A stretch of DNA of 64,000 nt from Limnochordales bacterium (lineage in GTDB: Bacteria > Bacillota > Limnochordia > Limnochordales > ZCTH02-B6), in assembly GCA_035304545.1 (NCBI GenBank), contig DATGPV010000054.1, positions 196,606-260,605 on the forward strand, given 5' to 3'. Shown piece by piece: positions 11,275 to 48,500 of the stretch (position 1 is its first letter; every line of letters starts with the position of its first letter). The translations under genes and the position numbers were made by a program. The notes under the pieces were generated by a model. It ran no database searches. It worked only from the letters and a program-made list of their open reading frames with translations, and was not told the DNA's origin.

Positions 11275-11292
11275 CGGAAGGAGTGATCCACG

Positions 11293-26522: not shown

Positions 26523-26673
26523 CCGCGACCACCTCCTTGTCCCCTGGCCCGACAATACGGGGCCCGTCCCCCTCGGCACGGCGGACGCGGTGAACGTTCG
26601 CCGTCCGCGGGTTCCATCCTGCACCAGGATATCCCCCCGGGCCCCTTTTCTGCGCCGTCCAAAGCCGTGAGGG

Positions 26674-27516
26674 TCAGGCGCGCGGGCCGGGCCCCTGCGG
26701 CGACAGCACCCACGCCTCCAGCGCGTCGGCCACGGTTTCGCCTTCTTTCAGGACGACGTCAGCCACCAGGTGCAGCAGAGGCTCGCTATGGCCCATGGCT
26801 ACCCCGGTGCCCGCAAAGCTCAGCAGGCTGAAGTCGTTGAGGGAATCGCCCACGGCCAGCACCTGCCGGCGGTCGATGCCCCGCTCGCGGCAGTAATCGG
26901 CCAAGGCCTGACCTTTGGTGGCCTGGGGATGCAGGATGTGCACCACCCGGGGCGCGTCGAAGCTGGGCAGCACCAGCAGCTGGACCTGGCCTTCCAAGTA
27001 GGCAAAGTGCCGGATCACCCACCGGCAGGCGTCCTCGCCCCACACCACCAGTTGATCGGGAGGCGCCGGCAGGCGGTCGGCCACGTCGGGCACGACGATG
27101 CCCGGAGGAGCGTACCGGGTGTCGGCCGGCTGTTCGGTGTAGTAGATGGTGTCGGCCGCGTCGGCCCGCACCCGCACCCCCGACGCGCGCATCTCCTGCA
27201 GCATGAACCGGGCCAAGTCCAGCGGCAGGGTCAGGCGCCGCAGCACCCGCCCCGTCCCGTCGTAGGTCACGCCGCCGGTCGTGCAGATCATGGGCAGGTC
27301 GTCGGCGATCTGCCGGGCTACCGGCATGGTGGTCAGGCGGGTCCGGCCCGTGGCCAGAATCACTTCAATGCCCGCCGCACGGCAGCGGCGCACCGCCTCC
27401 ACGTCCCGGGGCGCCAGCCGCTTATCCAATCCCAGCAGGGTATCGTCGATGTCCAGGGCGATCAGCCGAAACCCTTCCGCGGCCGCGCCCGGCCCGTTGT
27501 CGGTTCTGCTCACCAC
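26674..27516 (-). CDS. Cof-type HAD-IIB sugar phosphatase
   Basis: HAD motif I is LIALDIDDTLL. A Cof-like cap is present, and motif IV is AVGDSLNDFSLLSFAGTGVAMGHS. Confidence 0.8.
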   Translation of the reverse strand: MVSRTDNGPGAAAEGFRLIALDIDDTLLGLDKRLAPRDVEAVRRCRAAGIEVILATGRTRLTTMPVARQIADDLPMICTTGGVTYDGTGRVLRRLTLPLDLARFMLQEMRASGVRVRADAADTIYYTEQPADTRYAPPGIVVPDVADRLPAPPDQLVVWGEDACRWVIRHFAYLEGQVQLLVLPSFDAPRVVHILHPQATKGQALADYCRERGIDRRQVLAVGDSLNDFSLLSFAGTGVAMGHSEPLLHLVADVVLKEGETVADALEAWVLSPQGPGPRA

Positions 27517-27576
27517 GCCGCCTCCTGTCGTCGTGCTGGTGGGGTGCCGGGCGGCAGGCGGTGGCGCCGGCGGCCC

Positions 27577-28266
27577 TCACCCCAAGAGCGGGAGCCCGTG
27601 GATGGTCTCCAGCACGGCCGCCGCGTCGGCCAAGTCCGGCAAGACCGCCTGGGCCCCCGAGCGCCGGAGGAGCGCGGCATCGTATGGGCCCGTGGCCACC
27701 AGTACGCACGGATAGCCATTGGCCCGGGCGCAAGCCGCGTCCCGCGGCGTGTCGCCGATGACGACCACCCGGTCAAAATCGGTGCCGTAATAGTCCCGGG
27801 CCCGCTGGACGCCGATGCGGACCAGCTCGGCCCGGTCTACGGTGTCGCTGCCGAAACCGCCCACCGGAAAGGGATCGTTGATGCCGTGGGGCGCGAGCTT
27901 GATGCGGGCTCCCCGCTCCAGGTTACCCGTACCCAAAGCGGGGTACAAACCGTCCTCCGGCCGGCAGCGGTCCAGCAGTTCCCGCACCCCCGGTGCGACG
28001 CGGCCGGGGCGCCGCCGCACTTCTTCCATAAGACAGTCGCAATAAGTATCCCACAGGCTGGGGCTCCACGCTTCCGCCGGATCCCGCCCCACCTGCCGCA
28101 GCATGTCCTGGAAGATGGCCGTATCGGTGCGGCCGGCGGTGTCCAAAGACTCCCATTGTTCCCCGGTGCCGTACAGGACAGAGAAGGCCCGGACGATGGC
28201 GCGCCGGCCCGCCCCCTCGCCCAGCACCAGCGTGCCGTCAAGATCAAAGAGGAGCAAAGTCTTCAT
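27577..28266 (-). CDS. HAD-IA family phosphatase (phosphoglycolate-phosphatase-like)
   Basis: Only the last 229 codons of ORF 27577..29025 are credible. The ATG at 28266 overlaps the upstream gene's stop (ATGA). The sequence reads MKTLLLFDLDGTLV (motif I) and ends with VVVIGDTPRDAACARANG (motif IV). Confidence 0.75.
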   Translation of the reverse strand: MKTLLLFDLDGTLVLGEGAGRRAIVRAFSVLYGTGEQWESLDTAGRTDTAIFQDMLRQVGRDPAEAWSPSLWDTYCDCLMEEVRRRPGRVAPGVRELLDRCRPEDGLYPALGTGNLERGARIKLAPHGINDPFPVGGFGSDTVDRAELVRIGVQRARDYYGTDFDRVVVIGDTPRDAACARANGYPCVLVATGPYDAALLRRSGAQAVLPDLADAAAVLETIHGLPLLG

Positions 28267-29687
28267 GTCGCTGCTGGATTCGCCTCGGGCCCGCCCGATT
28301 CCTTGCCGGCGAAACCGGCCAGCCACCGGGCGTAGTCCATGGGCAGCGTGTACACCGCGGCCCGGGCCCCCCGGCCGGACCGCCCAGGCTTGGGGTTGAC
28401 CTCGAGGATCCACAGGCGGCCCCCACGGTCCACACCGATGTCGATGCCCACGTCGCCGGCCTGGGGCGAGCGGGCGTCCAGCGCCGGCAAGAGGTCTTCC
28501 ACCAGCCGGCGGAGGCGTTCCCGGAGGGGCGGGGAGGCCGGCGGCCGGGGCACCCGCCGGGCCAGAACCCAAAAGGGGATGGGCCGGCCGCCTTGGTGGA
28601 GGTTGGAGACGGGCTGCCCGGGGCGGGCCCGGCGCACCGTCACGGCGACCATGCGCCAGCGGCCGCGGCCGTCTTTGAGGGCCAGAATCCGCACGTCGCA
28701 CACTCCCCCGCCGACCCGCACCAAGTCCAGTCCCTGCTGCACCAGAAAACCGCCCGCCTCGATCCACGGGGCAACGGCCTGATCCAGGGCCGCCCTCGGT
28801 ACCCGCGCCGGCCTGGGCCCGCGGGCCGGGGACCACAGGCATTCTCCGCCCGCGGCCTCCACCCGCACGATGCCCCGCCCCATGCACCCGTCGGCCGGCT
28901 TTACGTAGACGGTGCCCCACCGGGCCAGCATGGCGCGCAGCGTGGCCGCGGCATCCAGTGGGCGGGTCTCCGGCAGGTAGGAGCGCAGCCGGGGAAAGGC
29001 CAGCAGGTGTTGGTGCATGGCCCACTTGTCCCCCAGGTCGCCGTTGAACACGATGCTGCCCGCCCCGGCCAGCCGGGCCAAGAAGGCCTGGAGCTCGGCC
29101 CGGGGCAGGACGCCCACGGCCCGGTCAAAAACCACGTGGGGAAAGGGAAAAGGCCGGCGCAGCCAGCCGCGGCCCCGGGGCCGGGGAACCCGGCCCCAAA
29201 CGGCCGGCGCCCCCCACGCCACATCCTGGGGCCCAAACAGAAAGGCCAGCACCCCCCGAGCCCGGGCAAGGCGCACAAACAGGCGGTTCGTGTCATGGTA
29301 TTGCCGGGCCAGGATGCCCACGACGGGGCCCAGGTCCAGAACGGCCGCGGCACCGGCGCCGGGGAGGCTCGACCCGGTGGCGATGCCGCCGGACCCGGTG
29401 GCAGCGCCAGGCCCGGTCATTGGGAGGGACCCGGCGGCCCCCCGGCGGGCCCACAAGGTGATGGGCGCGGGCACGTGCAAGGCCCGGGCCGCGGCCGGCG
29501 GCAGCCACAGGCCAAGGCCCGGCGCCGGGAACACCCGCACCCGCGCCGGCCACACCCCCCGGCCCACCCGCACCGCGACCGGCGCGCCCCCGGGCACGCC
29601 CAGCCACCGGGCCAAGCCCAGCGACACGCCTGCCTGATGAGGCGCGAGCCGTTGGGCCACTCGGATCCCCACGGGCACCGCGGCCAC
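28263..29687 (-). CDS. YheC/YheD-family ATP-grasp protein (endospore-coat-associated family)
   Basis: The 474-aa product has a GTG start 3 nt after the upstream GT stop. The N-terminal segment is of the kind seen at the start of YheC proteins (VGIRVAQRL...LGLARWLGVPGGAPVAVRVGRGVWPARVRV). It is followed by ILARQYHD...FNGDLGDKWAMHQHL...VYVKPADGCMGRGIVRV...DVRILALKD...NLHQGGR...DVGIDIGVDRGGRLWILEVNPKPG, a typical ATP-grasp core. Confidence 0.75.
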   Translation of the reverse strand: MAAVPVGIRVAQRLAPHQAGVSLGLARWLGVPGGAPVAVRVGRGVWPARVRVFPAPGLGLWLPPAAARALHVPAPITLWARRGAAGSLPMTGPGAATGSGGIATGSSLPGAGAAAVLDLGPVVGILARQYHDTNRLFVRLARARGVLAFLFGPQDVAWGAPAVWGRVPRPRGRGWLRRPFPFPHVVFDRAVGVLPRAELQAFLARLAGAGSIVFNGDLGDKWAMHQHLLAFPRLRSYLPETRPLDAAATLRAMLARWGTVYVKPADGCMGRGIVRVEAAGGECLWSPARGPRPARVPRAALDQAVAPWIEAGGFLVQQGLDLVRVGGGVCDVRILALKDGRGRWRMVAVTVRRARPGQPVSNLHQGGRPIPFWVLARRVPRPPASPPLRERLRRLVEDLLPALDARSPQAGDVGIDIGVDRGGRLWILEVNPKPGRSGRGARAAVYTLPMDYARWLAGFAGKESGGPEANPAAT

Positions 29688-29690
29688 GGC

Positions 29691-30695
29691 TCACGCCCCA
29701 CCCCGCGCACCCACGGCCTCGGCATAGACCTGCACGGTTTGGGCCGCCACCTGGCGCAAGTCAAAGCGGGCCTGCACAAACCCCCGCCCCCAGCGGGCCA
29801 GCTGTCGGCGAAGGGCCCCGTCCTGGGCCAGCTGCACCAGGGTTTCCCGGATCGCACGCGGCGTGGGCGCCACGCCGCTGACCCGGCCGATGAAGTTGTC
29901 CCGGGCCAGCCGGTGGGCATTGTCCGGGGTCAGCAGCCCATCCCAGCCTTCGCCCAGCACCAGGGCGGCGCAGCCCGTGGCCAAGCCCTCCAGCACCGCC
30001 CGTCCTGTGCCGGCCACCACGTCGCTTTGCAGCAGCCACGGCACCGGGTCCCGGAGCCAGCCCACATGGCGCACCCAAGGCGCCGTCCGGCGGTCAGTGG
30101 CCATCACCAGCTCGACCCCGGGCAGCCCCTGCACCGCCCGGCACAGGGCGTCGGCGCCGGCCCGCCGCCGGTGGTCGATGCGCCCCAGGTACAGCACCCG
30201 CAGCCCGTCCCGCACCGGCCGCTCCCGGAAGGGAAACTGGTCCAGGTCGATCCCGTTAGGGATCACCCGGGTACGCCCGCCCCGGTCGCCCATTGCCTCA
30301 GCCAGCGCTTCCCAAGGGCAGATGATGCGGCGGGCCTGCGCGAAGGCGGGCTCATGGACGGGCCGGATGAGGGTGCGGGCATGGCACGTGATCACCAAGG
30401 GCAGCCCCGTGCACCGGGCCAGCCGGGCCCCGGCGGCAAAGGTCCGCCGGGAGTGGGCGTGGATCACGTGGGGCCGCAGCCGCCGCACCAGCTGCCGGAG
30501 CGCGGCCATGTCCAGCCGGATGGAGCAGGGCACGCCGCCCGCGAGAAACCGGGTGTAGCGCCACTGCCGGGCCGTATGGACGCGGGCGTTGACCACATGC
30601 ACGGCATGTCCTTGACGCGCCAGTTCCCGGGCCAGGGCGAAAACGTGAGTCATCTGGCCGCTGGGGAAATAGTGGGACAGCATCAGAATCCGCAC
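29691..30695 (-). CDS. glycosyltransferase, GT4-like (GT-B fold)
   Basis: I trimmed the ORF to the GTG at 30695 (GGGAGGTGGG 7 nt upstream). The sequence reads VRILMLSHYFPSGQMTHVFALARELARQGHAVHVV... with a C-terminal GT1-type region (AGTGRAVLEGLATGCAALV). Confidence 0.8.
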   Translation of the reverse strand: MRILMLSHYFPSGQMTHVFALARELARQGHAVHVVNARVHTARQWRYTRFLAGGVPCSIRLDMAALRQLVRRLRPHVIHAHSRRTFAAGARLARCTGLPLVITCHARTLIRPVHEPAFAQARRIICPWEALAEAMGDRGGRTRVIPNGIDLDQFPFRERPVRDGLRVLYLGRIDHRRRAGADALCRAVQGLPGVELVMATDRRTAPWVRHVGWLRDPVPWLLQSDVVAGTGRAVLEGLATGCAALVLGEGWDGLLTPDNAHRLARDNFIGRVSGVAPTPRAIRETLVQLAQDGALRRQLARWGRGFVQARFDLRQVAAQTVQVYAEAVGARGGA

Positions 30696-30838
30696 GGGCT
30701 TGCCCACCTCCCGCCCGCCGCCCGGCGCCGGCCCGCAGCCGCACCGGCCCGCCGGCGGGCACGGGCCTTCGGGTGCGGCTGCCGGCACCACGCCTCCCTT
30801 TGCTCGCCATCCTTATGTCCCCCCGTGCCCAACGGGCG

Positions 30839-30854
30839 CGGGAACCGGTTCCCG
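30839..30854. promoter_or_regulatory. perfect 16-bp palindrome CGGGAACCGGTTCCCG in the divergent GT promoter region
   Basis: The palindrome is read directly from the sequence. It sits about 90 nt upstream of the ATG at 30946 and about 145 nt upstream of the GTG at 30695. The function is unknown; it may be an operator. Confidence 0.3.
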
Positions 30855-30945
30855 TTTGCAAGACCCCGAGCGGGCGTCGCCGGCCAGGAGCGCGGACCTG
30901 ACCGGTTTCATAGGATGGACAGCCAAAACCCCGGAGGGATCCGCC

Positions 30946-32232
30946 ATGGCCTTGACGCAGCCGGCCCGCGGGCGGCCCGTCACCGCCCCGGTTCCCGACC
31001 GCCAACCCTGGGACGCGGTACTCCAGGCCCGCTGGGCCGCCCACATGGCCCAGCGGCCCGGCATGCCCGCCCGCTCCCCGTATGTGCTCTACCGCGGTCC
31101 CTTTTACAGCCCCGGCGGGTACACCTACGAGGCCCGCACCTTGCTCCGGCATCTCCTGGACGCGGGCTTCACGGTGCGCGCCCTACCGCCTACCCTGCGC
31201 CTGTTGCACAAGCCCGCCGTCCTGCACCGCCTCGCGCCGGATCTCTACGATCTGCACGCCCCTGCCCCAGGGCGCCGGCCTACAGTGGAGCTGACCCACT
31301 TGCCCGCCTGCTGGTTCAGGGCCCTGGCCCCGGGGGCGGCACGCCTTGGCCGCACCATGTTCGAAACGGACCGCCTGCCGCCCGACTGGGTGCGGACGTG
31401 CCGGCGCATGGACGAGGTCTGGGTCCCGTCCACCTTCAACGCGGAGACCTTCGCCGACAGCGGCGTGCCCGCCCGCAAAATCCGCGTCTTGCCTCTGGGC
31501 GTGGACACCCGGCGCTTTCACCCCGGGGTGCCGCCCCTCACCATCCCCGGCGCCCGGGGGTTCGTTTTCCTGGCCAACTTCGCCTGGCAGCAGCGCAAGG
31601 GCTGGCCCATCCTGGTGGAGGCCTTTTTGCGGGAGTTTCACCCTAAAGAGGACGTCACCCTGGTGCTGAAGACGCTGCCCGTTTTTCACCGGCCCTCCGC
31701 GGTGCGTCAGCAGCTGTACCGCTACATCCGCCGGCTCGGTTTCACCCCGGGAAACACCGCTCCCATCATCCTGGACCAGCGGGTGTTGCCCCGGGAGATG
31801 TTGCCCCGCCTGTATGCCGCCAGCGACGCCTTTGTGCTGCCTACCCGGGGCGAAGGCTGGGGCTTTCCGTTTCTGGAGGCCATGGCCTGCGGGAAACCGG
31901 TCATCGGCACCGCCTGGAGCAGCCTGCTGGACTTTTTGCACCCGGACTACGCCTATCTCCTCGAGATAGAGGGCCTGGAGCCCGTGCGGGGTCCGGTGGA
32001 GCTACACCGGTTTTACCGGGGCCACCGGTGGGCCAAGCCGAGCGTGGACCACTTGCGCCAGCTCCTGCGGCACGTCTTTGAGCACCCCGGGGAAGCCCGG
32101 GCCAAGGGAGCGCGCGCTCGCGCGGCCGTGGAGCAGCGCTGGGACGTGGGGCCCACGGCGGCCCGCTTGGTGGATGCCCTCGCTCGCTGGGTCGGCGACG
32201 CGCCGGGGACGGCCGCCCGGGCCCCAGGCTGA
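30946..32232 (+). CDS. glycosyltransferase (GT4/GT1-type C-terminal domain); paralog of 35248..36663
   Basis: The ATG at 30946 follows GGAGGG. Motifs include LQARWAAHMAQRPGMPARSPYVLYRGPFYSPGGYTYEARTLLRHLLDAGFTV, MDEVWVPSTFNAETF, and LPTRGEGWGFPFLEAMACGKPVIGT. Confidence 0.75.
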   Translation: MALTQPARGRPVTAPVPDRQPWDAVLQARWAAHMAQRPGMPARSPYVLYRGPFYSPGGYTYEARTLLRHLLDAGFTVRALPPTLRLLHKPAVLHRLAPDLYDLHAPAPGRRPTVELTHLPACWFRALAPGAARLGRTMFETDRLPPDWVRTCRRMDEVWVPSTFNAETFADSGVPARKIRVLPLGVDTRRFHPGVPPLTIPGARGFVFLANFAWQQRKGWPILVEAFLREFHPKEDVTLVLKTLPVFHRPSAVRQQLYRYIRRLGFTPGNTAPIILDQRVLPREMLPRLYAASDAFVLPTRGEGWGFPFLEAMACGKPVIGTAWSSLLDFLHPDYAYLLEIEGLEPVRGPVELHRFYRGHRWAKPSVDHLRQLLRHVFEHPGEARAKGARARAAVEQRWDVGPTAARLVDALARWVGDAPGTAARAPG

Positions 32233-32235
32233 CCC

Positions 32236-33426
32236 TCACAGCCGCCGACGCCGGGCCCGCCGGCGCCGCCGGCGGAGCCCGCGCCCGCTCCGCCGGCGGG
32301 GCAACCTCCGCCGCCAGCCTCGGCCCCACCGGCGCCGCCAGCCCCAACGCCGCTGCCGGCCGCGTTGCCCCCGGCCCAGGGCTCGCCGGGCCCTCCCCCG
32401 CCGCCCCCGCCGGCGGGGCAGCCGCGCTCCCCTGTGGGGCCGGTGGAGGAACGCCGCCCACTGGGCCATGATCCTATCCCTGCCGAACAGCTCTATAGCC
32501 CGTACGCGGCCCTGGTGGCCGATGCGAGCCGCCAGTTCCGGATCGTCCAGCAGGCGCTGGATGGCCTGCTTCAGATAGGCCAGGTCATCGCTGACGAATC
32601 CGTCGACCCCGTCGCGGATGATCTCATGCACCTCGTAGGTGCCCCAACCCGCATCGCCCCACACGGGCCCCAAAGCCACCACGGGGACGCCCGTCATGAG
32701 CGCTTCTACCAGCCCCAGCGTATAGCAGGCGGGCTTGGTGCCGGTGTACACATAGGCCCGGGCTTCCCGAAGCTTCTGTTTCATCTCTTCGTAGCCCAGC
32801 GGCCCGCCGTCCAAGGCTCCCGCAGCTTCGTTGCCGTGGCCATATACGTGCGCGTGAAACCCGTAGGCCAAGGTGGCGAAGGCGGCGAAGTTGCAGGCGG
32901 CCGCCCGGGCGGGCATGCTGCGGTTCAGGGTGATGACCTCGTCGGTGTGGCCCTGCCAGCCGCCGAATTCGGCGGGGTCTTTGTAGAAGCGGATGACGGC
33001 ATCCGCCCCGATGTGACCAGGCAGGAGCAGCTCCTTGGGCGAGTGGCGCACCACTTCTAGGCCCAAGCGCCGGTAAGGCCGCAAGCTCTCCTCCACGGCG
33101 GGGGTCGACTGGCCGATGCTGCGCCACACCACCCGCTTGCCCCGGAACAGATGCCAGTTGTTGCTGATCCACTGGGGGATGTGCATGACCAGCACCAGGT
33201 CGGCCCACGCAACCAGGCGCCGGTCCAGCCGGGCCTGGGAGCAGCGGCGGGCGATGGCCTCTAGGACAGGATACCGGGGCAGCGGCAAAGGCGGGCGCAT
33301 GGCATCGGTTGGAGCATGGGGGTTGAGGTACGCGCCCAGCGCGAAGACCTGGTGCCCCAGTTCCGACAGAAGCCGCAGTTCATCGTATTCCAGCGCCGCG
33401 TGACAGGACAAGTACAGGATCCGCAT
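32236..33426 (-). CDS. GT-B-fold glycosyltransferase-like protein with a 67-aa Arg-rich C-terminal tail
   Basis: The sequence MRILYLSCHAALEYDELRLLSELGHQVF... continues to YTLGLVEALMTGVPVVA...EIIRDGVDGFVSDD...LLDDPELAARIG, a GT1-like C-terminal half. The tail is PHRGARLPRRRGRRGRARRALGRGQRGRQRRWGWRRRWGRGWRRRLPRRRSGRGLRRRRRRARRRRL. Whether the tail is translated is unproven. Confidence 0.65.
   Translation of the reverse strand: MRILYLSCHAALEYDELRLLSELGHQVFALGAYLNPHAPTDAMRPPLPLPRYPVLEAIARRCSQARLDRRLVAWADLVLVMHIPQWISNNWHLFRGKRVVWRSIGQSTPAVEESLRPYRRLGLEVVRHSPKELLLPGHIGADAVIRFYKDPAEFGGWQGHTDEVITLNRSMPARAAACNFAAFATLAYGFHAHVYGHGNEAAGALDGGPLGYEEMKQKLREARAYVYTGTKPACYTLGLVEALMTGVPVVALGPVWGDAGWGTYEVHEIIRDGVDGFVSDDLAYLKQAIQRLLDDPELAARIGHQGRVRAIELFGRDRIMAQWAAFLHRPHRGARLPRRRGRRGRARRALGRGQRGRQRRWGWRRRWGRGWRRRLPRRRSGRGLRRRRRRARRRRL
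32239..32439 (-). repeat. CGG/CCG-rich low-complexity segment (Arg-rich tail of 32236..33426)
   Basis: I decoded 67 codons by hand: 36 are Arg (mostly CGG) and 4 are Trp. The co-phased plus frame reads as a Pro/Ala-rich peptide. Confidence 0.6.
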
Positions 33427-33444
33427 GGGGCTCAGCCCCTTTCC

Positions 33445-34185
33445 CTAAAGACGGGTCGTTCGGCGGCGTGGGAAAACCCGCCGCTGACCTCGGGAGCGTC
33501 GGCCACCGTAAGACCGGCGCCGCCCCCGGGCGCGCGAAAAGCCCCACCGCCGGCGCTGACCCCGGAATCCTCCGCGACCCCGCCTGCGCCCCCCAAAGCC
33601 CGGCGGTGGCGGTGCATCGGCCAGTACCACCACGCCGGGACGGGCGGGCACACCCCGCTGGGGTTCCATGTAGTCGGGCCCGTAGCGGGCCGTCAGCCAG
33701 CGGTGGGCATCCGCGGGCGCCGCGAGCTCCAACTGGTCCAACCGGACCCGGGAAAAGGGGAGCAGCCATTTCCGGGGCACACGGCCCTTGAAGGGGTGGC
33801 AGAGATAATCCCCGTCTTCGGCCCATGGGTATAAGTCGACGCCCATGTCGTTGACGGGGCTGTACGTGATCCGCAGCAGCGCTCCCCCGCAGTGGCGCTG
33901 CACCTCGAACCCCAGGGCCTCCCACGCGTGGGCCAGCCCCAGCACCCGGGGCACGTCCGCGGCCATGACGCCCAGGTCCGCGTCGGTGTCCCACGGGATC
34001 ACCGCTTGGTCCCGGACCGCGCCCAGCAAGGTACCGCCATCGGCCCAGTACGGAATCCCATGGCTTTCCAAGATCCGCACCGTCTCCCGGAGAACGGTGT
34101 GCAAGTGATGGAGACAGCAGGCCGGCGTGTCCACGTGCTGGCTGCGCCCTGCGGCACAGCGAACGGAATCCCGACCGCAGGTCAT
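33445..34185 (-). CDS. LicD-family phosphotransferase with an Arg/Gly-rich C-terminal tail
   Basis: The LicD core is LESHGIPYWADGGTLLGAVRDQAVIPWDTDADLGV (DxD). The tail is GFGGRRRGRGGFRGQRRRWGFSRARGRRRSYGGRRSRGQRRVFPRRRTTRL. The start is an ATG 18 nt after the upstream stop, with GGGGGTG between them. Confidence 0.75.
   Translation of the reverse strand: MTCGRDSVRCAAGRSQHVDTPACCLHHLHTVLRETVRILESHGIPYWADGGTLLGAVRDQAVIPWDTDADLGVMAADVPRVLGLAHAWEALGFEVQRHCGGALLRITYSPVNDMGVDLYPWAEDGDYLCHPFKGRVPRKWLLPFSRVRLDQLELAAPADAHRWLTARYGPDYMEPQRGVPARPGVVVLADAPPPPGFGGRRRGRGGFRGQRRRWGFSRARGRRRSYGGRRSRGQRRVFPRRRTTRL
33448..33600 (-). repeat. Arg/Gly-rich low-complexity segment (tail of LicD)
   Basis: 22 of 51 codons are Arg. 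The RGG/RRR pattern was read directly from the sequence. Confidence 0.55.
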
Positions 34186-34203
34186 CGGTTCTGCACCCCC
34201 TCG

Positions 34204-35145
34204 TCAGCGCCGCCGGAAGCGCCGGGCAGCCCTGGTTGAGCCCACCGCTTGGCCCCCACGCCGACCCTCAGTCACCCGCAGCCCCTGGCCCGAGCGGATG
34301 GTTCCCCGGATCCGGCTCCGCCCGGGACCCATCCGTGCGGTTCGAGGCGCCCGCCGCCGGCGAAGCAACCGCCGTGTCGGCCGGGGCCGGGACGTTGGCG
34401 GTGGCGGCAAGGGCGGCGTGGGCGGGGCCGGTGGCGGGGCCGGTGGCGGCGGCAGCCCCAGCTCGATCCCCCACGGGGCTCCCCGGGGCCGGCGTTGAAG
34501 GACACCGATGCCGCCCCAGCCTTGGGCGGGATTCTCGATGAATTCCTGGAAATGGTAATGGCTTCGGATACGCTGCCAATAGGTGTGCACATCAACGCCC
34601 ACGGCGATGTGGGGCGGCACCACGACGATGTCGTGGAAGGCCACTAACCCCTCCCGGCGCACCAGCGGACTGTACATCTCAAAGTCCGCCTGTACGCCGC
34701 TGTACGTGTGATCGCCGTCGATGAACAGAAAGTCCAAGGGCTTCCCTTGCAGCAGCGCGGCCGCCTGCCGACGGGTGGCCGGCTGGTGGGAATCGGCCCG
34801 GATAAGGTGCAGCTCTTGCCCGGGCAAAGCGAAGGCCCGGTACAACGGCTCCCGGGACTCGTCATAGCCGCCGCCGAAGGCGCCGCCGGGCAAATCGATG
34901 CTGATGATGCGGGCCCCTGGCGGCAGCACCCGGCAAAAGAGAAAGAGGCTGCCGCCGTTGGCCGTGCCGATCTCCAGCATCGCGCGGGGCTGGCGCTGCG
35001 CCAACAGCTCCAATAGGGCCCGGATCTCGCTGCGCACCTGCCATGGCCCGATGAGGCCGTTGGCAAATCCCCAAGCGAAGTCCAGCAGTTCGTCCAGGGT
35101 GCGGTGCCGGAAGGACCGCAGCTCATTGATGAGTTCCTGGGACAT
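34204..35145 (-). CDS. class I SAM-dependent methyltransferase (Methyltransf_24/CmcI-like) with a Pro-rich then Arg-rich C-terminal tail
   Basis: Motif I is MLEIGTANGGSLFLF, followed by IISIDL and FLFIDGDHTYSGVQADFEMY. The tail is PRGAPWGIELGLPPPPAPPPAPPTPPLPPPPTSRPRPTRRLLRRRRAPRTARMGPGRSRIRG...RAARRFRRR. Confidence 0.75.
   Translation of the reverse strand: MSQELINELRSFRHRTLDELLDFAWGFANGLIGPWQVRSEIRALLELLAQRQPRAMLEIGTANGGSLFLFCRVLPPGARIISIDLPGGAFGGGYDESREPLYRAFALPGQELHLIRADSHQPATRRQAAALLQGKPLDFLFIDGDHTYSGVQADFEMYSPLVRREGLVAFHDIVVVPPHIAVGVDVHTYWQRIRSHYHFQEFIENPAQGWGGIGVLQRRPRGAPWGIELGLPPPPAPPPAPPTPPLPPPPTSRPRPTRRLLRRRRAPRTARMGPGRSRIRGTIRSGQGLRVTEGRRGGQAVGSTRAARRFRRR
34207..34491 (-). repeat. 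Pro-rich/Arg-rich low-complexity segment (tail of the methyltransferase)
   Basis: This was read directly from the minus-strand frame that is contiguous with the MTase domain. Confidence 0.55.
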
Positions 35146-35247
35146 GTCGTCACCGCCCCTTCCGGGGAATGCCGGCGGAAGGCCGGCCCGTCCGTTGACC
35201 AGCCCGCCGCGCCGTCCACCGGGTCTGCATGGTGCCGGTCTTGGGCC

Positions 35248-36663
35248 CTACCCCCGGACCCAGCGGGCCAACTCGTGGGCAAAGGCGGGGCCGGTCAGCC
35301 GCACGTCCCAGCGGTGGACCGCGTCGTGGCGGGCCTGCAAACCCTTGGCCCGCGCTTCCTCCCGGTGGGTGAAAACGTGGCGCAGGAGCGCCCGCAAATG
35401 CTCCACGCTGGGTTTGGCCCAGCGCAACCCGCCGTACAGATGGCCCAGCTCCACGTGGGGCGGCGCGGGCTCCAGCCCTTCCAGGTCGATGAGGTACGCG
35501 TTCTGATCGTTGAGAAAGTCCGTTTGGGCGCTCCAGCGGGTCGCGATGACGGGCAGGCCCGCCGCCATGGCCTCCTGCAGGGGAAGCCCCCACCCTTCGC
35601 CCCGGGTAGGCAGCACGAAGGCGTGGCACGCGGTGTACAATCCCGCCATCTGGCTGGCGGCCAGGGCCCGCTGATCCACGATGATGGGCGCCGTCCCGTT
35701 CCACGGCAGCCGCAGACTATCGATGAATCCTTGGATGATAGGCGCGACCCCCGGGTTCGTCTTGAGGATCAGGGTCACATCTTCGTCGGGATGAAACTCC
35801 AGGGCGTAGGCCTCGATGAGCAGGGGCCAGCCTTTCCGCTGCAGCCAGCTGAAGACCGACAGGAACCGGAAGCCGCGGGCTCCCGGCAGCGGCAGCGGCG
35901 GAGCCCCCGGGTGGAAAAGCCGCGTATCGACGCCCACGGGCAGGATGCGCAATTTGCCCGGGTCCACACCGCTCGCGGCAAAGGTGTGGTAGTTGAAATG
36001 CGACGGCACCCAGATGGCGTGCATGCGGCGGCAAGCCGCGACCCAACCGGCCGGCAGCCGATCCGCCTCGAACATGGTCCGCCCGATGCGGATCGTGCCG
36101 GGGACGGCCGCGCCGAAGGCGTCGGGCGGCGCGTGCACCAGGGACACCTGCGGGTAGCGGCCCCGCACCGGCCGGTGCAGCAGGGGAAACAAATGCCCCA
36201 GGTGGTCATCGATCTCCAGCCCTGCCCACCAGCGGCCCGGAGGGGGCGGCGGCACAACCCGCACGGTGAACCCCGCGTCCAGAAGCTGCCTGAGCACCGC
36301 CCGGGCCTCGTAGTTGTACCCGCCGGCGCCGTAGAATGGGCCGACATAGTAAATGTAGGGGGACCGCCGGGGCATGCCCGGCAGCCGGCCCAGGCCCGCG
36401 GCCCAGCGGGCTTGCAGCCACCTATCGAGGCCCGCGCGGGACGGCGGAGCCCACCGGCGCCAACCGCGCACCCGCCCGCGGCGCCACCAGACCGGCCGCG
36501 CCCGCCCGCGACGGCCCATGGCCGACCTGCGGCGTCCTCGCCAACCGAATCGTCTCCTGCGGCGCCCGGTGCGTCTCCTGCCCCGGACGGCCGCGGGCCC
36601 AGCGTGGATGAAGGGCACGACTGTGTTCCTCCCCTCGCGCCGGCCAAACGCCTGGCCTGGCAT
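35248..36663 (-). CDS. glycosyltransferase (paralog of 30946..32232) with an Arg/Trp-rich N-terminal extension
   Basis: From LDRWLQARWAAGLGRLPGMPRRSPYIYYVGPFYGAGGYNYEARAVLRQLLDAGFTV onward it is collinear with the plus-strand paralog through LPTRGEGWGLPLQEAMAAGLPVIAT and WAKPSVEHLRALLRHVF. The ATG at 36663 lies 15 nt after the upstream stop. An alternative ATG at 36519 still leaves an Arg-rich leader. Confidence 0.75.
   Translation of the reverse strand: MPGQAFGRREGRNTVVPFIHAGPAAVRGRRRTGRRRRRFGWRGRRRSAMGRRGRARPVWWRRGRVRGWRRWAPPSRAGLDRWLQARWAAGLGRLPGMPRRSPYIYYVGPFYGAGGYNYEARAVLRQLLDAGFTVRVVPPPPPGRWWAGLEIDDHLGHLFPLLHRPVRGRYPQVSLVHAPPDAFGAAVPGTIRIGRTMFEADRLPAGWVAACRRMHAIWVPSHFNYHTFAASGVDPGKLRILPVGVDTRLFHPGAPPLPLPGARGFRFLSVFSWLQRKGWPLLIEAYALEFHPDEDVTLILKTNPGVAPIIQGFIDSLRLPWNGTAPIIVDQRALAASQMAGLYTACHAFVLPTRGEGWGLPLQEAMAAGLPVIATRWSAQTDFLNDQNAYLIDLEGLEPAPPHVELGHLYGGLRWAKPSVEHLRALLRHVFTHREEARAKGLQARHDAVHRWDVRLTGPAFAHELARWVRG
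36433..36663 (-). repeat. Arg/Trp-rich low-complexity segment (N-terminal extension of the GT)
   Basis: The segment reads ...RGRRRTGRRRRRFGWRGRRRSAMGRRGRARPVWWRRGRVRGWRRW. It precedes the first residue that aligns with the paralog. Confidence 0.5.
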
Positions 36664-36678
36664 CGCCGGAGCGCTCCG

Positions 36679-37638
36679 TCAAGCCGCCACTGTCTGCCGC
36701 CAGTAGTTCAGCGTGTCCCGCAACGTCTGCTCGAGGGGGATTTCCGGTTTCCAGCCGGTGCACGCCCGGAAGCGGCTGGCATCGCCGAGAAGGATCGGCA
36801 CGTCCGACGGCCGCAGGCGGGCCGGATCGACCCGTACCTCTACCCGCACCCGGCTCAAGGCCACCAGACGCTCCAGCACCGACCGAATGGTGTGGGTTTC
36901 CCCGCTGGCGATGTTGTACACCGCGCCGGGCGCGCCGTGCTCCAGCGCAAGCCGGTACGCCCGGACGATGTCCCGCACGTCGGTGAAGTCCCGCCGGGCA
37001 TCCAGGTTGCCCACATGCAGCACCGGCGGGCGCACGCCCCGCTCCATCTCGGCGATCTGCTTGGCAAAATTGCTGATGACAAAAGGTTCTGCCTGCCGGG
37101 GTCCAGCGTGGTTGAAGGCCCGGGTACGGACCACGTCCAGCCCGTAGCTCTGGTGGTACTGGTAGGCCAGGAAATCCTGGGTGATCTTGCTGACCGCGTA
37201 CGGACTCAAGGGGCGCAGCGGCTGCTCTTCGCGAATGGGCACTTCGTGGGCGTAGACCAAGCCGTATTCCTCCGAAGAGCACGCCACCTGCACCCGGCAA
37301 TCCAAGCGGTGCTTGCGGATGGCTTCAAACAAGTTGAGCTGGCCCAGGACGTTGGTGTCCATGGTTTCGTAGGGCGCCGTCCAGGAACTGGGCACAAAGC
37401 TTTGGGCCGCCAGGTGAAACACCCAGTGGGGCCGCACCTCCCCCACCACCCGTTCCACCGATGACGGGTCCCGCAGGTCGCACTCCAGCAGGTGCAGCCG
37501 GGGGACTAGGTGCCGGATGTTGTGCATCCCGCTGCGGGTGCGGTGAAGGCCGTACACTTGAAACCGGCCGTCCGCCACCAAGAGCTCCGCCAAGTGGCTC
37601 CCCGCGAAACCAGTGATGCCGGTGATGAGCACACGCAC
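36679..37638 (-). CDS. SDR-family NDP-sugar dehydratase/reductase (GDP-mannose 4,6-dehydratase / GDP-6-deoxyhexose reductase-like)
   Basis: I trimmed the ORF to the GTG at 37638 (GGGAGGGAGG 8 nt upstream). Motifs include VRVLITGITGFAGSHLAELL, the catalytic YAVSK, and RDFTDVRDIV. The product is about 319 aa. Confidence 0.85.
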   Translation of the reverse strand: MRVLITGITGFAGSHLAELLVADGRFQVYGLHRTRSGMHNIRHLVPRLHLLECDLRDPSSVERVVGEVRPHWVFHLAAQSFVPSSWTAPYETMDTNVLGQLNLFEAIRKHRLDCRVQVACSSEEYGLVYAHEVPIREEQPLRPLSPYAVSKITQDFLAYQYHQSYGLDVVRTRAFNHAGPRQAEPFVISNFAKQIAEMERGVRPPVLHVGNLDARRDFTDVRDIVRAYRLALEHGAPGAVYNIASGETHTIRSVLERLVALSRVRVEVRVDPARLRPSDVPILLGDASRFRACTGWKPEIPLEQTLRDTLNYWRQTVAA

Positions 37639-37841
37639 GGGGCCTGCCTCCCTCCCTGTGTTTGGAAACCAATGCAACTCAGACCCAACGTATGGCCGCG
37701 CGGGCATGCCGGTCACCGGATCCCACCCAATGGGGAATCCCATCATGCGAAAGGCATCCTATTGTGAGTCAATTAGGAATTCCATCCTGCCCTTGCCGCT
37801 GGTCCCGGTCATACCGTGGCGCGAAAGGAGGTGCCGCCAGG

Positions 37842-38747
37842 GTGCAAGTCGCCATCGTGACCCACGACGGGCACGCCCGGTCGTACCGCACCCGGGCGCT
37901 CTTGGACCGGTTGACCCGGCGGGGTGTCCACTGGGTGTTGCTGAGTCCGCAACAGATCACGCTGCAAGTACAAGGCAAACACGTCCGGTTTCTGGACGGA
38001 GCCGCCCGGCCCGTGGAGCCCGGGGTAGTGCTCAACGCGCTCTACTTGCCTTCGGGGCACGGGTTGGAGATCATCGAAGGGTTTGAAGCCGTCGGGGTGC
38101 CCGTGGTCAACCGGGCCGCCGCCTGGCGCAAGGCCAAGACCAAAGCCCTGGCCAGCGTAGCCTTGGGCGTGCACGGCGTGCCGCACCCCGACACCGTCTG
38201 GTCGCCGGGGGCGCCGGCGGCCATCGGCCATGTGGCCCGTGCCGTCATCGGACCGCACGTAGTCTACAAGCCGTGGCGGGGCACCATGGGCACCGGCGTC
38301 ACGCTCCTCACCCGGCCCCGGTCCGTGCACCGTGTAGTAGCCCGCCTGGCTCGCCGGGGCGCCCCCGTCTACCTGCAGCGTTTCGTGCCCAACCCGGGCC
38401 GGGACATCCGCGTCATGGTGGTGGGCGAGGAAGCCATCGGGGCCACCTACCGCGTCGCCCGGCGGGGACGGTGGAAGACCAACGTCACCGCGGGCGGCAT
38501 TCCTGCCCCCTGCCCCGTGACCGAAGATCTCGCGGCCGTCTCCGTGGCCGCGGCCAAGAGCCTCGGCCTGGACATCGCGGGCGTGGATGTCATCGAGGGA
38601 GCCCACGGGTACGAAATCTTGGAGGTCAACGCCTGGCCCAACTACCATCGATTTGACCAGGTGGCGGGCGTCGACGTGGCCGACCGCATCGCGGCCCTGC
38701 TCATGGCCCGGGCGGTGCCGCCCAGGCGTCCCCCCAAAGACCGGTAG
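37842..38747 (+). CDS. RimK-family ATP-grasp ligase (alpha-L-glutamate-ligase-like)
   Basis: The GTG at 37842 follows AAAGGAGGTG. Motifs include VVYKPWRGTMGTGV, QRFVPNPGRDIRVMVVGEEAIGATYRV...WKTNVTAGG, and GVDVIEGAHGYEILEVNAWP. Confidence 0.8.
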   Translation: MQVAIVTHDGHARSYRTRALLDRLTRRGVHWVLLSPQQITLQVQGKHVRFLDGAARPVEPGVVLNALYLPSGHGLEIIEGFEAVGVPVVNRAAAWRKAKTKALASVALGVHGVPHPDTVWSPGAPAAIGHVARAVIGPHVVYKPWRGTMGTGVTLLTRPRSVHRVVARLARRGAPVYLQRFVPNPGRDIRVMVVGEEAIGATYRVARRGRWKTNVTAGGIPAPCPVTEDLAAVSVAAAKSLGLDIAGVDVIEGAHGYEILEVNAWPNYHRFDQVAGVDVADRIAALLMARAVPPRRPPKDR

Positions 38748-38810
38748 GAGAGGCTCCAGGTGCTAGGCGCCGGTGGCGGCTCCGACCGTAGGCTTTCGTT
38801 GCGGACTCGG

Positions 38811-40295
38811 TCACAGGTCCCGGCGGCGCAGGCGGGCCACGGCCTCGATGTGGGTCGTCATCGGGAACATGTCCACGGGCTGGACCTGCTCGGTGTCGTA
38901 GCCCAGCGAAGCAAGGCGGGCCAGATCCCGGGCCAGGCTTTCGGGGTGGCAAGATACGTACACAAGGCGGGGCACCCCGGCCCGGGCCAGCGCCTCCAGC
39001 ACCGCGGGATCGCACCCGCGGCGGGGCGGGTCCAGCACCGCCACATCAAACCGCTGGCCCGCCTGCACCAAGCCCGGCAGCACGTCCTCCACCCGGCCCA
39101 CGAGAAACCGGGCGTTGTGGATGCCGTTGTGCCGGGCGTTGCGCTGGGCGTCGGCCACCGCGTCGGGCACGGCTTCGATGCCCACCACTTCCCGGGCGCC
39201 CGCGGCCAAGTAGAGGGCGATGGTGCCCACCCCGCAGTAGGCGTCCAAGACCCGCTCCCCGCCGGTGAGGCCCGCGTCCCGGCGCGCCTGCTCGTACAGG
39301 ACTTCCACCTGCTGGCCGTTGACCTGGAAAAAGGACCGCGGCGAGATGAGAAAACGCACCGGGCCGATGCGGTCCTCCAGGTGGGACGCGCCCCACAGGA
39401 TACGGGTTTCGTCGCCGAAAATGACGTTGGTGCGGCGGGGGTTGATGTTTTGCACCACCGACACCACCGCCGGGTGCGCGGCCAGGCCGCGTACCACCGC
39501 CTCCCGAGCCGGCAAGTGGGGGCCGTTGGTCACCAGGATGACCATGGCCGTCCGGTGGGCGCGGCTTGACCGCACCACCACGTGCCGGACGACGCCCTGG
39601 CCAGTGCCCTCGTCATAGATGGGCACCCGGTGCTCGTCCAGGAGGGAGCGGGCCAGGTTGGCCACCTCGACGTTGAGGGGATCCTGGATCAAGCAGTCGT
39701 TGGCGTCGACGATGTCGTGGGTGCCCCGGGCATAAAAGCCCATGGCCACATGCCCGTCGACCGCGGCCACCGGATACTGGGCTTTGTTGCGGTAGCGCCA
39801 CGGATCCGCCATGCCCAACACCGGCATCACGGGTACGGAGGCCAGCCCTCCGATGCGGCGCAAGGCCTCCCGCACCCGCCGCTCCTTCCAGCGCAGCTGG
39901 GCCTGGTAGTCCAGGGCTTGCAGTTGGCAGCCGCCGCACCGGTCCGCCACCGGGCAAGGCGGCGCCACCCGGTCGGGGGATGGCCTAAGGAGGCGCAAGA
40001 GCCGCCCGCGGCCGTGGCGCCGGGCCACGGACTCCATCTCCACCAGCCCGTAGTCGCCAGGCACCGCTCCGGGCACGAACACCACCAGCCCGTGCACCCG
40101 CCCGACGCCGTCCCCCGCGGCGTCCAGGTCCTCAATGGCCATGGGGTACTGTAGGCCCACCCGGATGGCCTCGCCCTTGGCCGGCGGTTCCGCCGTGGCC
40201 GCCCGCCGGGGCGCCCGTTCCCGGCGCCCCATCCGCGCCCGCCTGGGCCCTCGGCCCTGTCCCATGGTCGCCCTCCTCCTACTTGCCTCCCCCAT
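38811..40295 (-). CDS. 23S rRNA (uracil-C5)-methyltransferase, RumA/RlmD (TrmA) family
   Basis: A TRAM-like N-terminus (IEDLDAAGDGVGRVHGLVVFVPGAVPGD) is followed by the Fe-S cysteines PPCPVADRCGGCQLQ. The SAM domain includes VLDAYCGVGTIAL, DPPRRGC and YVSCHPESLARD. The start is uncertain; ATG codons at 40295, 40265 and 40232 are all possible. Confidence 0.85.
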   Translation of the reverse strand: MGEASRRRATMGQGRGPRRARMGRRERAPRRAATAEPPAKGEAIRVGLQYPMAIEDLDAAGDGVGRVHGLVVFVPGAVPGDYGLVEMESVARRHGRGRLLRLLRPSPDRVAPPCPVADRCGGCQLQALDYQAQLRWKERRVREALRRIGGLASVPVMPVLGMADPWRYRNKAQYPVAAVDGHVAMGFYARGTHDIVDANDCLIQDPLNVEVANLARSLLDEHRVPIYDEGTGQGVVRHVVVRSSRAHRTAMVILVTNGPHLPAREAVVRGLAAHPAVVSVVQNINPRRTNVIFGDETRILWGASHLEDRIGPVRFLISPRSFFQVNGQQVEVLYEQARRDAGLTGGERVLDAYCGVGTIALYLAAGAREVVGIEAVPDAVADAQRNARHNGIHNARFLVGRVEDVLPGLVQAGQRFDVAVLDPPRRGCDPAVLEALARAGVPRLVYVSCHPESLARDLARLASLGYDTEQVQPVDMFPMTTHIEAVARLRRRDL

Positions 40296-40396
40296 TGTAG
40301 CCCAAGGGCCCGCCCCCGTCAGCCGCGCCCAGTCATGGGCTTCCCCAAAGGCCCGTATACATCTACGGGGCCGGTGGGAAATCCCGCCGCCATCCG

Positions 40397-42102: not shown

Positions 42103-42103
42103 G

Positions 42104-44608: not shown

Positions 44609-44692
44609 GGGCAGGATGGGTCCCCCCAAAGGCCCTGTTGTCGCTATCTTATGGGTCTTCGGGAGGACCGATGTGATTCCTTGTGGAAAAAG

Positions 44693-46378: not shown

Positions 46379-46438
46379 CGGTGCGCGTCCCTCCCCCGCG
46401 GCCATGGCTAGTATGCCCGCCGCGGAAGGACGGCAATC

Positions 46439-46476
46439 AAAAAGAGCCGGAAACCCGGAGGTTGCCGGCTCTTTTT
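46439..46476 (-). terminator. intrinsic terminator after clpX (symmetric, A-tract/T-tract flanked)
   Basis: AAAAAGAGCCGG...CCGGCTCTTTTT has perfect 12-bp arms with an inner AACC/GGTT pairing. A T-run follows on both strands. It lies 48 nt downstream of the clpX stop. Confidence 0.8.
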
Positions 46477-46523
46477 GGCAACTGGCCCGACGCCCGCCGC
46501 AGGGACGTGGAAAAGGCGCCCCG

Positions 46524-47786: not shown

Positions 47787-47790
47787 CGTA

Positions 47791-48399: not shown

Positions 48400-48437
48400 G
48401 GACGACCTCCACCTTCCCTGGCCCCAATATATGCTTG

Positions 48438-48500
48438 GGGACACGGCCCACTGTACGGCGGCTGCGCCTTGCAGTGTTCCCCGGCCACCCGCCGTGTCCC
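48438..48500. repeat. long inverted repeat between tig and clpP
   Basis: The perfect 10-bp arms are GGGACACGGC and GCCGTGTCCC. They enclose a second imperfect pair, CACTG...CAGTG. No U-tract follows. The role is unknown; it may be an attenuator or a processing site. Confidence 0.35.

Follow-up and report, generated by a model that had tools for sequence, protein, structure and literature searches.

Gene content and conservation of the cluster

We analysed a stretch of 64,000 nucleotides from a Limnochordales bacterium (contig DATGPV010000054.1, positions 196,606 to 260,605; hereafter the window), in which a cluster of 11 genes at positions 26674-38747 encodes glycosyltransferases (GTs), two ATP-grasp ligases and accompanying enzymes. 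The name Limnochordales bacterium is that of the database proteins closest to those of the window, and we read the host as a Limnochordales metagenome-assembled genome (MAG). The G+C content of the window is about 70%. The cluster is organised in four transcription units, referred to as operon A, GT5, operon C and rimK. A preliminary description of this DNA had delineated the open reading frames (ORFs), their coordinates and the operon junctions and had assigned domains to the products; all 11 genes were found as described, and each of the domain calls was confirmed by Pfam and NCBIfam.

Operon C is encoded on the minus strand and starts with a gene for an Rmd-type short-chain dehydrogenase/reductase (SDR; 36679..37638, PF16363 with 290 bits). 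The start at 37638 is upheld by a strong ribosome-binding site and by agreement with the starts of the orthologues, which are 87-89% identical. Among solved structures the enzyme is closest to Aneurinibacillus thermoaerophilus Rmd (2pk3), which it matches along its entire length with 296.7 bits, as compared with about 165 bits for GDP-mannose dehydratases. Judging from this similarity, the SDR is predicted to be a GDP-6-deoxy-D-lyxo-4-hexulose reductase yielding GDP-D-rhamnose. The GDP-mannose dehydratase (gmd) that is needed before the Rmd step was found neither in the window nor in the at least five orthologous loci. The second gene of the operon, GT9 (35248..36663, with the gene caller's start at 36519), encodes a GT4-family glycosyltransferase with PF13692 and PF00534. 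The same two families are present in the product of GT5, a GT4-family (GT4/GT1) gene standing alone on the plus strand (30946..32232), and the alignment identifies GT5 and GT9 as paralogues with 56% identity.

The three remaining genes of operon C code for a methyltransferase, a phosphotransferase and a further glycosyltransferase. The S-adenosylmethionine-dependent methyltransferase (34204..35145) is of the Methyltransf_24/CmcI-like, rhamnosyl-O-methyltransferase-like kind (PF13578 63.6 bits, PF04989 31.9 bits) and is weakly similar to O-methyltransferases in the PDB. The LicD-family phosphotransferase (33445..34185) scores 55.6 bits against a threshold of 22.6 for PF04991, with an alignment that covers just the N-terminal 42 profile positions. 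Its best solved relative is the catalytic domain of fukutin-related protein (FKRP; 3e-20, residues 20-180), a ribitol-phosphate transferase. The last gene (32236..33426) encodes a GT-B-fold glycosyltransferase of a 333-residue family with a CgeB/YkvP-type domain, PF13524 being the sole family above threshold. An AlphaFold model of this GT-B-like protein, built from an alignment of 47 homologues, has a pLDDT of 97 and shows the GT-B fold, and its nearest solved neighbours are the retaining GT4 enzymes ManT, BshA, PglA and PimA.

Operon A, likewise on the minus strand, begins with a GT4 glycosyltransferase gene (29691..30788). The gene caller places its start at 30788, the orthologues favour the alternative start at 30695. 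PF13439 (82 bits) matches the N-terminal half only, and a weak similarity to PimA is detectable. Homologues of this GT4 were found on Limnochordales-type contigs only, plus one at 55% and one at 37% identity, the latter on contig L171. The following gene (28263..29687) starts 3 nt past the GT4 stop and encodes a YheC/D-family ATP-grasp amidoligase. Its PF14398 match reaches 200.8 bits against a cut-off of 26.8 and spans profile positions 4-255 of 255. The protein has an additional N-terminal domain of about 110 residues, which is also present in one L171 paralogue; orthologues are 55-60% identical. A sequence search of solved structures gave no relative, and sequence searches with this protein and with the operon A GT4 returned matches that are almost all Limnochordales-type. 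An HAD-IA-type phosphatase gene (27577..28266; PF00702, PF13242, PF12710), whose start overlaps the YheC/D stop as ATGA and whose product is 77-80% identical to its orthologues, is followed by a Cof-type HAD-IIB phosphatase gene as the last of the operon (26674..27516; PF08282 122.5 bits, TIGR01484 above cut-off). The latter is kept downstream of the HAD-IA gene in all orthologous loci.

Divergently from operon C, the plus strand carries a gene for an ATP-grasp enzyme of the RimK-family alpha-L-glutamate-ligase type (37842..38747), with 168.3 bits for TIGR00768 against a cut-off of 143.4. The protein stays below the equivalog cut-offs for RimK (91 vs 331), LysX (142 vs 276), MptN (163 vs 350) and CofF (45 vs 300). 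The position of the gene is kept in all orthologous loci.

A Kyte-Doolittle scan of the 11 proteins gave no convincing membrane segment. The maximum 19-residue mean was 1.74, located inside Rossmann cores, whereas LivH and LivM from the same window, which served as controls, reached 2.5 with 6-7 segments. Wzx/Wzy, Wzm/Wzt and phosphoglycosyl transferase genes were detected by Pfam neither in the window nor in the at least five syntenic orthologous loci. The lack of transmembrane, priming and export genes that had been noted for the cluster holds for all 11 proteins, and that of priming and export genes extends to the whole window.

The same cluster was found in identical form in six independent metagenome contigs. 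At 55-90% protein identity the arrangement is kept in at least five species (L007/L008/L011, L012, L013, L014+L010, L015+L009 and L172), in the order engB - PRC-barrel - rlmD - rimK / SDR - GT9 - ... - GT-B-like / GT5 / GT4 - YheC/D - HAD - Cof-HAD - pfk. Its place in the chromosome, with engB and rlmD on one side and pfk on the other, is conserved as well. L012, L013 and L015 have another GT1 in the place of the methyltransferase and LicD genes, and L013 additionally encodes Methyltransf_11 and FkbM-like methyltransferases. In L007 a second YheC/D gene lies ahead of GT4.

Arginine-rich tails and promoters

Among the approximately 46 window ORFs scanned, the four highest Arg densities belong to four consecutive genes of operon C. 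The GT-B-like protein ends in an Arg/Gly/Trp tail of 65 residues (32239-32433, minus strand) with 55% Arg, 4 Trp and a net charge of +36. On the same strand, LicD has a tail of 51 residues composed of Arg and Gly (33448-33600), the methyltransferase a Pro-rich linker followed by an Arg-rich tail (34207-34470), and GT9 an Arg/Trp-rich N-terminal extension (36424-36663); a start at 36519 would still lie inside the Arg-rich stretch. Net charges of the operon C tails range between +21 and +36. Lys is missing from the tails, acidic residues are absent or number two at most, and several Trp are present.

The preliminary description had pointed out Arg-rich tails, and these are real: the tailed enzymes have the same gene lengths in six independent metagenome assemblies, G+C at the third codon position within the tails is 0.69-0.91, and the composition is conserved. 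Orthologue tails are not alignable in sequence, yet composition and reading frame are kept. This applies to the GT-B-like tail in all Limnochordales orthologues, and the GT9 orthologues of L007, L012, L013, L014 and L015 all have an Arg-rich N-terminus. The extra GT1 and the Methyltransf_11 enzyme of L012/L013, which are non-orthologous, are Arg-tailed as well. In total, all operon C enzymes that build the glycan are Arg-tailed in each of the species, and the tails extend over at least six families of enzymes. No such tail is found on the SDR, on GT5, on the RimK-like protein or on the proteins of operon A, nor on GT-B-like homologues outside the lineage (about 50% identity), which are 330-340 residues long. 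From this distribution among the cluster proteins it follows that the tails mark the enzymes acting on the growing product, which points to a common function in tethering to an anionic surface.

Promoter elements were read by phylogenetic footprinting of the two divergent intergenic regions, which together comprise 360 nt. One invariant CATA box (CATAnnnTGG or CATAnnnnTGG) precedes each of the four transcription units, while the flanks diverge. In the GT4/GT5 region (30789..30945) the CATA columns are invariant in 5 orthologues. It holds the GT4-side box CATAAGGATGG (30817->30807, minus strand) and the GT5-side box CATAGGATGG (30909-30918, plus strand); a sigma-70-like site was not found in this region. 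In the SDR/rimK region (37639..37841) the CATA columns are invariant in 6 orthologues. Here AC-N17-CATACGTT lies on the SDR side (37713->37687, minus strand), about 50 nt 5' of the SDR start, and CATACCGTGG on the rimK side (37810-37819, plus strand). The pattern AC-N17-CATAnnnT has a single match in the 64 kb, the one upstream of the SDR gene, and 3 of the 5 matches to CATANNNTGG in the window lie inside the two cluster promoter regions.

Both the rimK and the GT4 promoter have a GGGAAC half-site or dyad 36-31 nt 5' of the CATA box. At GT4 of this species it forms the perfect dyad GGGAACCGGTTCCC (30840-30853), the sole exact match in 64 kb, and at rimK the imperfect dyad AGGAATTCCATCCT (about 37775-37788). 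The element common to both promoters suggests a common regulator and argues that rimK is part of the system. As a regulon marker the dyad GGGAAC-N2-GTTCCC was discarded: relaxed matches occur at the chance level (47 observed, 48.8 expected), and only the exact site at 30840 is meaningful. We also observed two strongly conserved blocks, AATTGAGTCCAAATAGGAAGCC and TCGCAYGAYGGGATTCCCC, 5' of the SDR promoter (37715-37790; L011-L015 aligned). They hold a partly compensated inverted repeat, which reads CCGGTCG-CA-CGACCGG in L012. These blocks may be a regulator site in common with rimK or an RNA element; an Rfam search of positions 26000-40500 at E<=1 gave no RNA family in the conserved leader blocks.

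The promoters of the cluster are not of the local sigma-A type. That of the adjacent gene rlmD, TGACG-17-TACAAT, is a sigma-A promoter; it is conserved and lacks a CA ahead of the -10 box. CATA is a hallmark of the -10 elements of B. subtilis sigma-E and sigma-K, and the determinants for recognition by these two factors are reported to be conserved among endospore formers. Consensus sequences for sigma-H, sigma-D, sigma-B, extracytoplasmic function (GGAAC-N17-CGT), sigma-F and sigma-G factors were compared with the cluster promoters as well, and none of them fits conservedly. A promoter of the sigma-D type, TAAA-N15-GCCGATAT, is unlike those of the cluster with their CATA boxes.

The rest of the window consists of housekeeping genes: tig-clpP-clpX-lonB-lonA-engB, rlmD, pfk, liv, mrp, beta-oxidation and glycolysis genes. 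The order tig-clpP-clpX-lonB-lonA-engB, at 41365-50030, is largely that of Bacillus subtilis, even though Limnochordia are deeply diverged from it and have a diderm envelope. LonB scores 904 bits against the cut-off of 723 for the spore_lonB equivalog, and a GerM-like gene is also present. Upstream of lonB (46401-46523) we noticed TGATTG-N15-GGGCATACTA, which resembles the sigma-F/G -10 consensus GGnnAnAHTR and as a sequence element would be consistent with forespore expression; in B. subtilis, lonB is sigma-F-dependent. An invariant CGTATACATCTA box (40330-40396), which could be a sporulation-type promoter, lies in five species ahead of the PRC-barrel gene (40397-41368), whose product has a long tail rich in Pro, Ala and Gly. 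A tmRNA gene lies on the minus strand at 58112-58474, between smpB and an amidase-gerM operon (Rfam RF00023, 149 bits), where ARAGORN was silent. CATACATT at 58296, considered as a control sigma-E box, was rejected since it falls inside this tmRNA gene.

Related loci in phages and other bacteria

About 500 homologues of the GT-B-like enzyme were found, with identities of about 50%; many are encoded on contigs of about 40 kb, and in IMG/VR 200 viral contigs encode such a homologue. In 50,697 cultured-phage records none was found. Viral loci showed a recurrent arrangement: in 74 of 80, one or two GT5-family genes are located directly 5' of the GT-B-like gene on the same strand, and 46 of the 80 have a homologue of a major capsid gene whose end lies 2.0-4.9 kb 5' of it. 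The order in L091 according to PHROGs is minor head - scaffold - major head - GT - GT - GT-B-like, and Pfam gives the same for L090. Methyltransferase, aminotransferase or SDR genes often follow the GT-B gene in these phage loci (L090, L091-L170; viral contigs of IMG/VR and ENA). Capsid glycosylation by phage-encoded GTs is established for mycobacteriophages, and from gene position the association of a capsid gene with GT5-family GT4s and the GT-B gene is a probable capsid-glycosylation module.

In the window the corresponding trio has the same order, GT9-(methyltransferase-LicD)-GT-B-like on the minus strand with GT5 abutting. The trio does not lie beside structural genes here, and no phage genes were found by Pfam in the 64 kb. 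Since the phage trio is placed beside capsid genes, operon C has in its core the homologue of a module whose position indicates that it acts on a cytoplasmic protein shell.

A homologous cluster is present on contig L089 of a Cytobacillus sp., in the order PMI - GT4 - ManC - SDR - CmcI-like methyltransferase - LamG - x - GT-B-like (45%), followed by three GT5-family GTs, DUF4214 GTs, GT2s and a YkvP/CgeB-like gene. Membrane proteins were not found in this cluster, and a sigma-K-like promoter, AC-N17-CATATAATA, lies 5' of its first gene. Inside this cluster, on the minus strand (L089:9900-10600), we observed a collagen-like GXY frame (GSPGPQGQPGSPGP...) with a beta-rich C-terminal region and several stop codons. 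Its sequence looks like a decayed gene for a BclA-like spore-surface glycoprotein, or like an assembly error.

The ligase module recurs as well. On the distant contig L171 (64% G+C, positions 2517-13768), five YheC/D, one RimK-like and two COOH-NH2 ligase (PF14395) genes surround a GT4 gene; the product of the latter is the one 37% identical to the operon A GT4, and the RimK-like gene comes next. This recurrence indicates that the association of GT4, YheC/D and RimK is older than the cluster. SDRs with 60-62% identity to the Rmd-like enzyme of the window occur in GT5-family clusters of further Firmicutes that form spores, namely Paenibacillus vini (L081:3800-15196) and a Peptococcaceae MAG (L017:5290-16383). 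Neighbours of the P. vini SDR include ManC, a DegT aminotransferase, a PglD-like acetyltransferase and TPR/DUF4214 GTs; the Peptococcaceae cluster adjoins rph. No membrane proteins were seen near either cluster. The promoters of these two loci were too ambiguous in the AT-rich DNA and were not used.

Possible function and comparison with known systems

Tentatively, and with slightly less than even confidence, we read the cluster as a co-regulated system, independent of export, whose enzymes decorate a protein surface formed in the cytoplasm, most probably the surface of the forespore from the mother-cell side. In the glycan module, consisting of operon C and GT5, the Rmd-type reductase would supply GDP-D-rhamnose, the GDP-mannose dehydratase being encoded elsewhere. 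The 333-residue GT-B enzyme together with GT9 and GT5 would build a short deoxyhexose glycan, based on D-rhamnose, directly on protein. Such an assembly would parallel the action of CgeB on CgeA in the B. subtilis crust and that of the capsid-adjacent phage trio. A variable cassette would tailor the glycan, the CmcI-like methyltransferase and LicD here and other GTs and methyltransferases in the relatives. The Arg-rich tails may tether the glycan-building enzymes, as opposed to the sugar-nucleotide enzyme, to an anionic target surface. The amidoligase module (GT4, YheC/D, two HADs and RimK) might equip the same structure with amino acids or with a decoration of the peptide-glycoside kind.

Several observations weigh against this reading. 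Although the type species of the class Limnochordia (Bacillota), L. pilosa, forms spores, the Limnochordales lineage carrying the cluster is uncultured and its endospore formation putative; L. pilosa is absent from the 78 related genome loci. A candidate acceptor protein was not identified in the window, the one hint being the decayed collagen-like (GXY) gene of the Cytobacillus cluster, and the closest characterised Rmd serves an exported S-layer glycan, in the slg cluster of A. thermoaerophilus. The -35 regions of the cluster promoters are unlike those of sigma-E, the sigma-K 'AC' at -35 is found only in this species and in L011, and the TAnnnT core that a sigma-A -10 box has in high-GC DNA is also part of CATAnnnT. 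Regarding the sigma-E/sigma-K-type promoters for which a search had been suggested, CATA boxes resembling the -10 part are present at all four units, and the -35 part does not fit in most orthologues. GT5/GT9 enzymes are distributed over many phyla, including non-sporulating ones, usually as tandem paralogues, and occur in phages too. In 78 genomes from many non-sporulating phyla, GT5-family loci almost never have multi-transmembrane or ABC transporter genes within 10 kb. Missing exporters alone therefore carry little weight, and the argument of the preliminary description that they speak against an exported polysaccharide is not specific. Its proposal of a mother-cell or spore-surface system is favoured by the soluble enzymes, the CATA boxes, the spore-type lonB and the GerM-like gene, by the spore-forming type species of Limnochordia, by the sigma-E/SpoIIID control and coat association of YheC/YheD and the soluble crust GTs in B. 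subtilis, by the YkvP/CgeB-like gene and sigma-K-like promoter of the Cytobacillus cluster and by the capsid-adjacent phage trio; it is weakened by this non-specificity and by the -35 misfit. It had further predicted a methylated, phospho-substituted 6-deoxyhexose glycan. The Rmd-type SDR agrees with the deoxyhexose; the methyltransferase-LicD pair is absent from three of the five related species (L012, L013 and L015), which makes the methyl and phospho decorations a variable tailoring cassette and not part of the core. Finally, the envelope of Limnochordia, which are diderm, offers targets as well, namely the outer membrane and the S-layer.

The foremost alternative, which we regard as unlikely but worth serious attention, is an envelope glycan for which priming and export would be encoded elsewhere; it could be an O-antigen of the D-rhamnan type, a polysaccharide of the outer membrane or a glycan of the S-layer. 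The soluble GTs would then work at the inner membrane face on an undecaprenyl-linked intermediate, and the Arg/Trp tails would be peripheral anchors binding anionic lipids, comparable to the amphipathic anchors of WbdD, PimA or MurG-type enzymes. Peptides rich in Arg and Trp bind anionic membranes, and the near absence of acidic residues and the several Trp of the tails would suit this role. The relationship of the SDR to Rmd of an S-layer-glycan pathway and the presence of the GT5 family in many diderm phyla favour this view, as does the diderm host. Moreover, Rmd combined with GT4s and a terminal methyltransferase resembles the ABC-transporter-dependent D-rhamnan systems of P. aeruginosa (common polysaccharide antigen) and E. 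coli (O9a). However, no Wzm/Wzt, Wzx/Wzy, phosphoglycosyl transferase or ligase of such a pathway was found in the 64 kb or in the at least five syntenic loci, and the cluster promoters differ from the local sigma-A type. The tight linkage and co-regulation of the YheC/D and RimK ligases also argue against an envelope glycan, and the core trio is capsid-adjacent in phages, where a lipid carrier is not expected.

Cytoplasmic glycosylation of some other protein that is later secreted or assembled, such as flagellin, pilin or a prophage- or encapsulin-like shell, would have no connection to sporulation. It would require soluble GTs and no exporter, as found here, and the phage homologues are encoded beside capsid genes. 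Flagella are encoded by cultured Limnochordia, and GTs, methyltransferases, phosphotransferases and enzymes that add amino acids occur together in glycosylation islands for flagellin, as in C. difficile type A/B. We nevertheless hold this explanation to be improbable: flagellar, pilus, phage and shell genes are missing from the window and the orthologous loci, the promoters have CATA boxes and are not of the sigma-D type, and YheC/D is a family associated with spore-formers.

An intracellular product, either a polymethylated (deoxy)hexose oligo- or polysaccharide or a glycoside-amino-acid conjugate (a compatible solute or thiol) made by GT4, phosphatase and ligase, would need no export at all. 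The GT neighbours include the methylmannose polysaccharide mannosyltransferase 7qsg (1.5e-6 by sequence; 4e-14 by fold at 19% identity), the methyltransferase weakly matches 6g7d, a 'Methyltransferase domain protein' (4.5e-5) that we believe to be a methyltransferase of the methylmannose polysaccharide pathway, and weak matches to MshA, BshA and SPS go with the resemblance of GT4, HAD phosphatases and ligase to the logic of mycothiol or glucosylglycerate synthesis. This is very improbable, as the similarity is at the family level only (E 1e-4 to 1e-6, 15-19% identity in structure matches; for the pathway of ManT, MeT1, MeT3 and MmpH, family-level matches and no hydrolase), the cationic tails on six enzyme families are left unexplained, and the capsid-adjacent phage homologues and CATA promoters argue otherwise.

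Returning to decoration of a spore-surface protein, a more specific version can be formulated, to which we assign a low probability. The tails would be an address tag that docks at least six enzyme families on a polyanionic scaffold, for which the ligases build the landing pad, and a tailed, domesticated relative of the phage trio would glycosylate the shell. The scaffold could be poly-acidic peptide tails put on a spore-surface protein by the co-regulated RimK-like and YheC/D ligases, in which case both halves of the cluster would work as a single machine.

How spores adhere, how hydrophobic they are and how they disperse is controlled by the glycans at their surface, the synthesis of which is understood in only a few Bacilli; in these the genes are scattered. 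To our knowledge, the function of the widely conserved coat enzymes YheC and YheD is not known. Through a compact cluster that joins YheC/D, a RimK-type ligase and a deoxyhexose module in a diderm, deep-branching lineage of Firmicutes, the roles of these ligases would become accessible to study. The Arg tails suggest a simple electrostatic recruitment of a whole pathway to its substrate. The homologous GT trio by the capsid genes of hundreds of uncultivated phages points to capsid glycosylation being widespread beyond mycobacteriophages.

We compared the cluster with the crust and coat genes of B. subtilis (sps, cgeAB/cgeCDE, yfnH-D, ytcABC and cotSA, plus YheC/YheD and YhaX). In the B. subtilis crust nine soluble GTs build the glycans, and CgeB glycosylates the crust protein CgeA directly. 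YheC, YheD, the HAD protein YhaX and the GT CotSA are conserved coat enzymes, and yheC and yheD are sigma-E/SpoIIID genes, which bears out for B. subtilis the earlier statement that YheC/YheD are associated with the endospore coat. Both systems consist of soluble enzymes only, without lipid-carrier or export genes, and include a 6-deoxyhexose pathway, several GT4/GT-B enzymes with PF13524 (CgeB/YkvP-type) among them, a YheC/D ATP-grasp enzyme and Cof/HAD phosphatases. The CATA -10 boxes of the cluster resemble the mother-cell sigma style of B. subtilis. In contrast to B. subtilis, where the genes are scattered over at least six loci, those of Limnochordales lie contiguously in a single cluster and are co-regulated. 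GDP-D-rhamnose, via Rmd, is the predicted sugar here, in place of dTDP-L-rhamnose or legionaminic acid. The RimK-type ligase, the Arg-rich tails and the diderm host are further differences, and the likeness is at the level of families.

With phage virion glycosylation as in the mycobacteriophages Che8 and Rita, where cytoplasmic GTs encoded beside the major capsid gene act on the assembled shell, the cluster has the proposed mode of action in common. The trio of the uncultivated phages is homologous to GT9, GT5 and the GT-B-like gene (41-51% identity for GT-B) and has the same gene order, but lacks Arg tails, ATP-grasp ligases and HADs. Systems for GDP-D-rhamnose and D-rhamnan, such as the A. 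thermoaerophilus S-layer and the P. aeruginosa common polysaccharide antigen, also have Rmd, multiple GT4s and an O-methyltransferase of the rhamnosyl-methyltransferase type. They possess gmd, wzm/wzt and an initiating transferase in addition, none of which was found here in the 64 kb or the orthologous loci.

Neighbourhoods of YheC/D, RimK and COOH-NH2 ligases have been predicted to modify spore-wall or capsular polymers (Iyer et al. 2009). As in these amidoligase neighbourhoods, YheC/D lies beside a GT and is accompanied by a RimK-type ligase; unlike there, the ligase module is joined to a deoxyhexose glycan operon and shares its promoter architecture. Spore-surface glycan genes and YheC/D neighbourhoods are thus known as kinds. 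The fusion of both into one compact, co-regulated Limnochordales cluster, the Rmd-based chemistry, the Arg-tail tag and the kinship to capsid-adjacent phage GTs appear to be undescribed.

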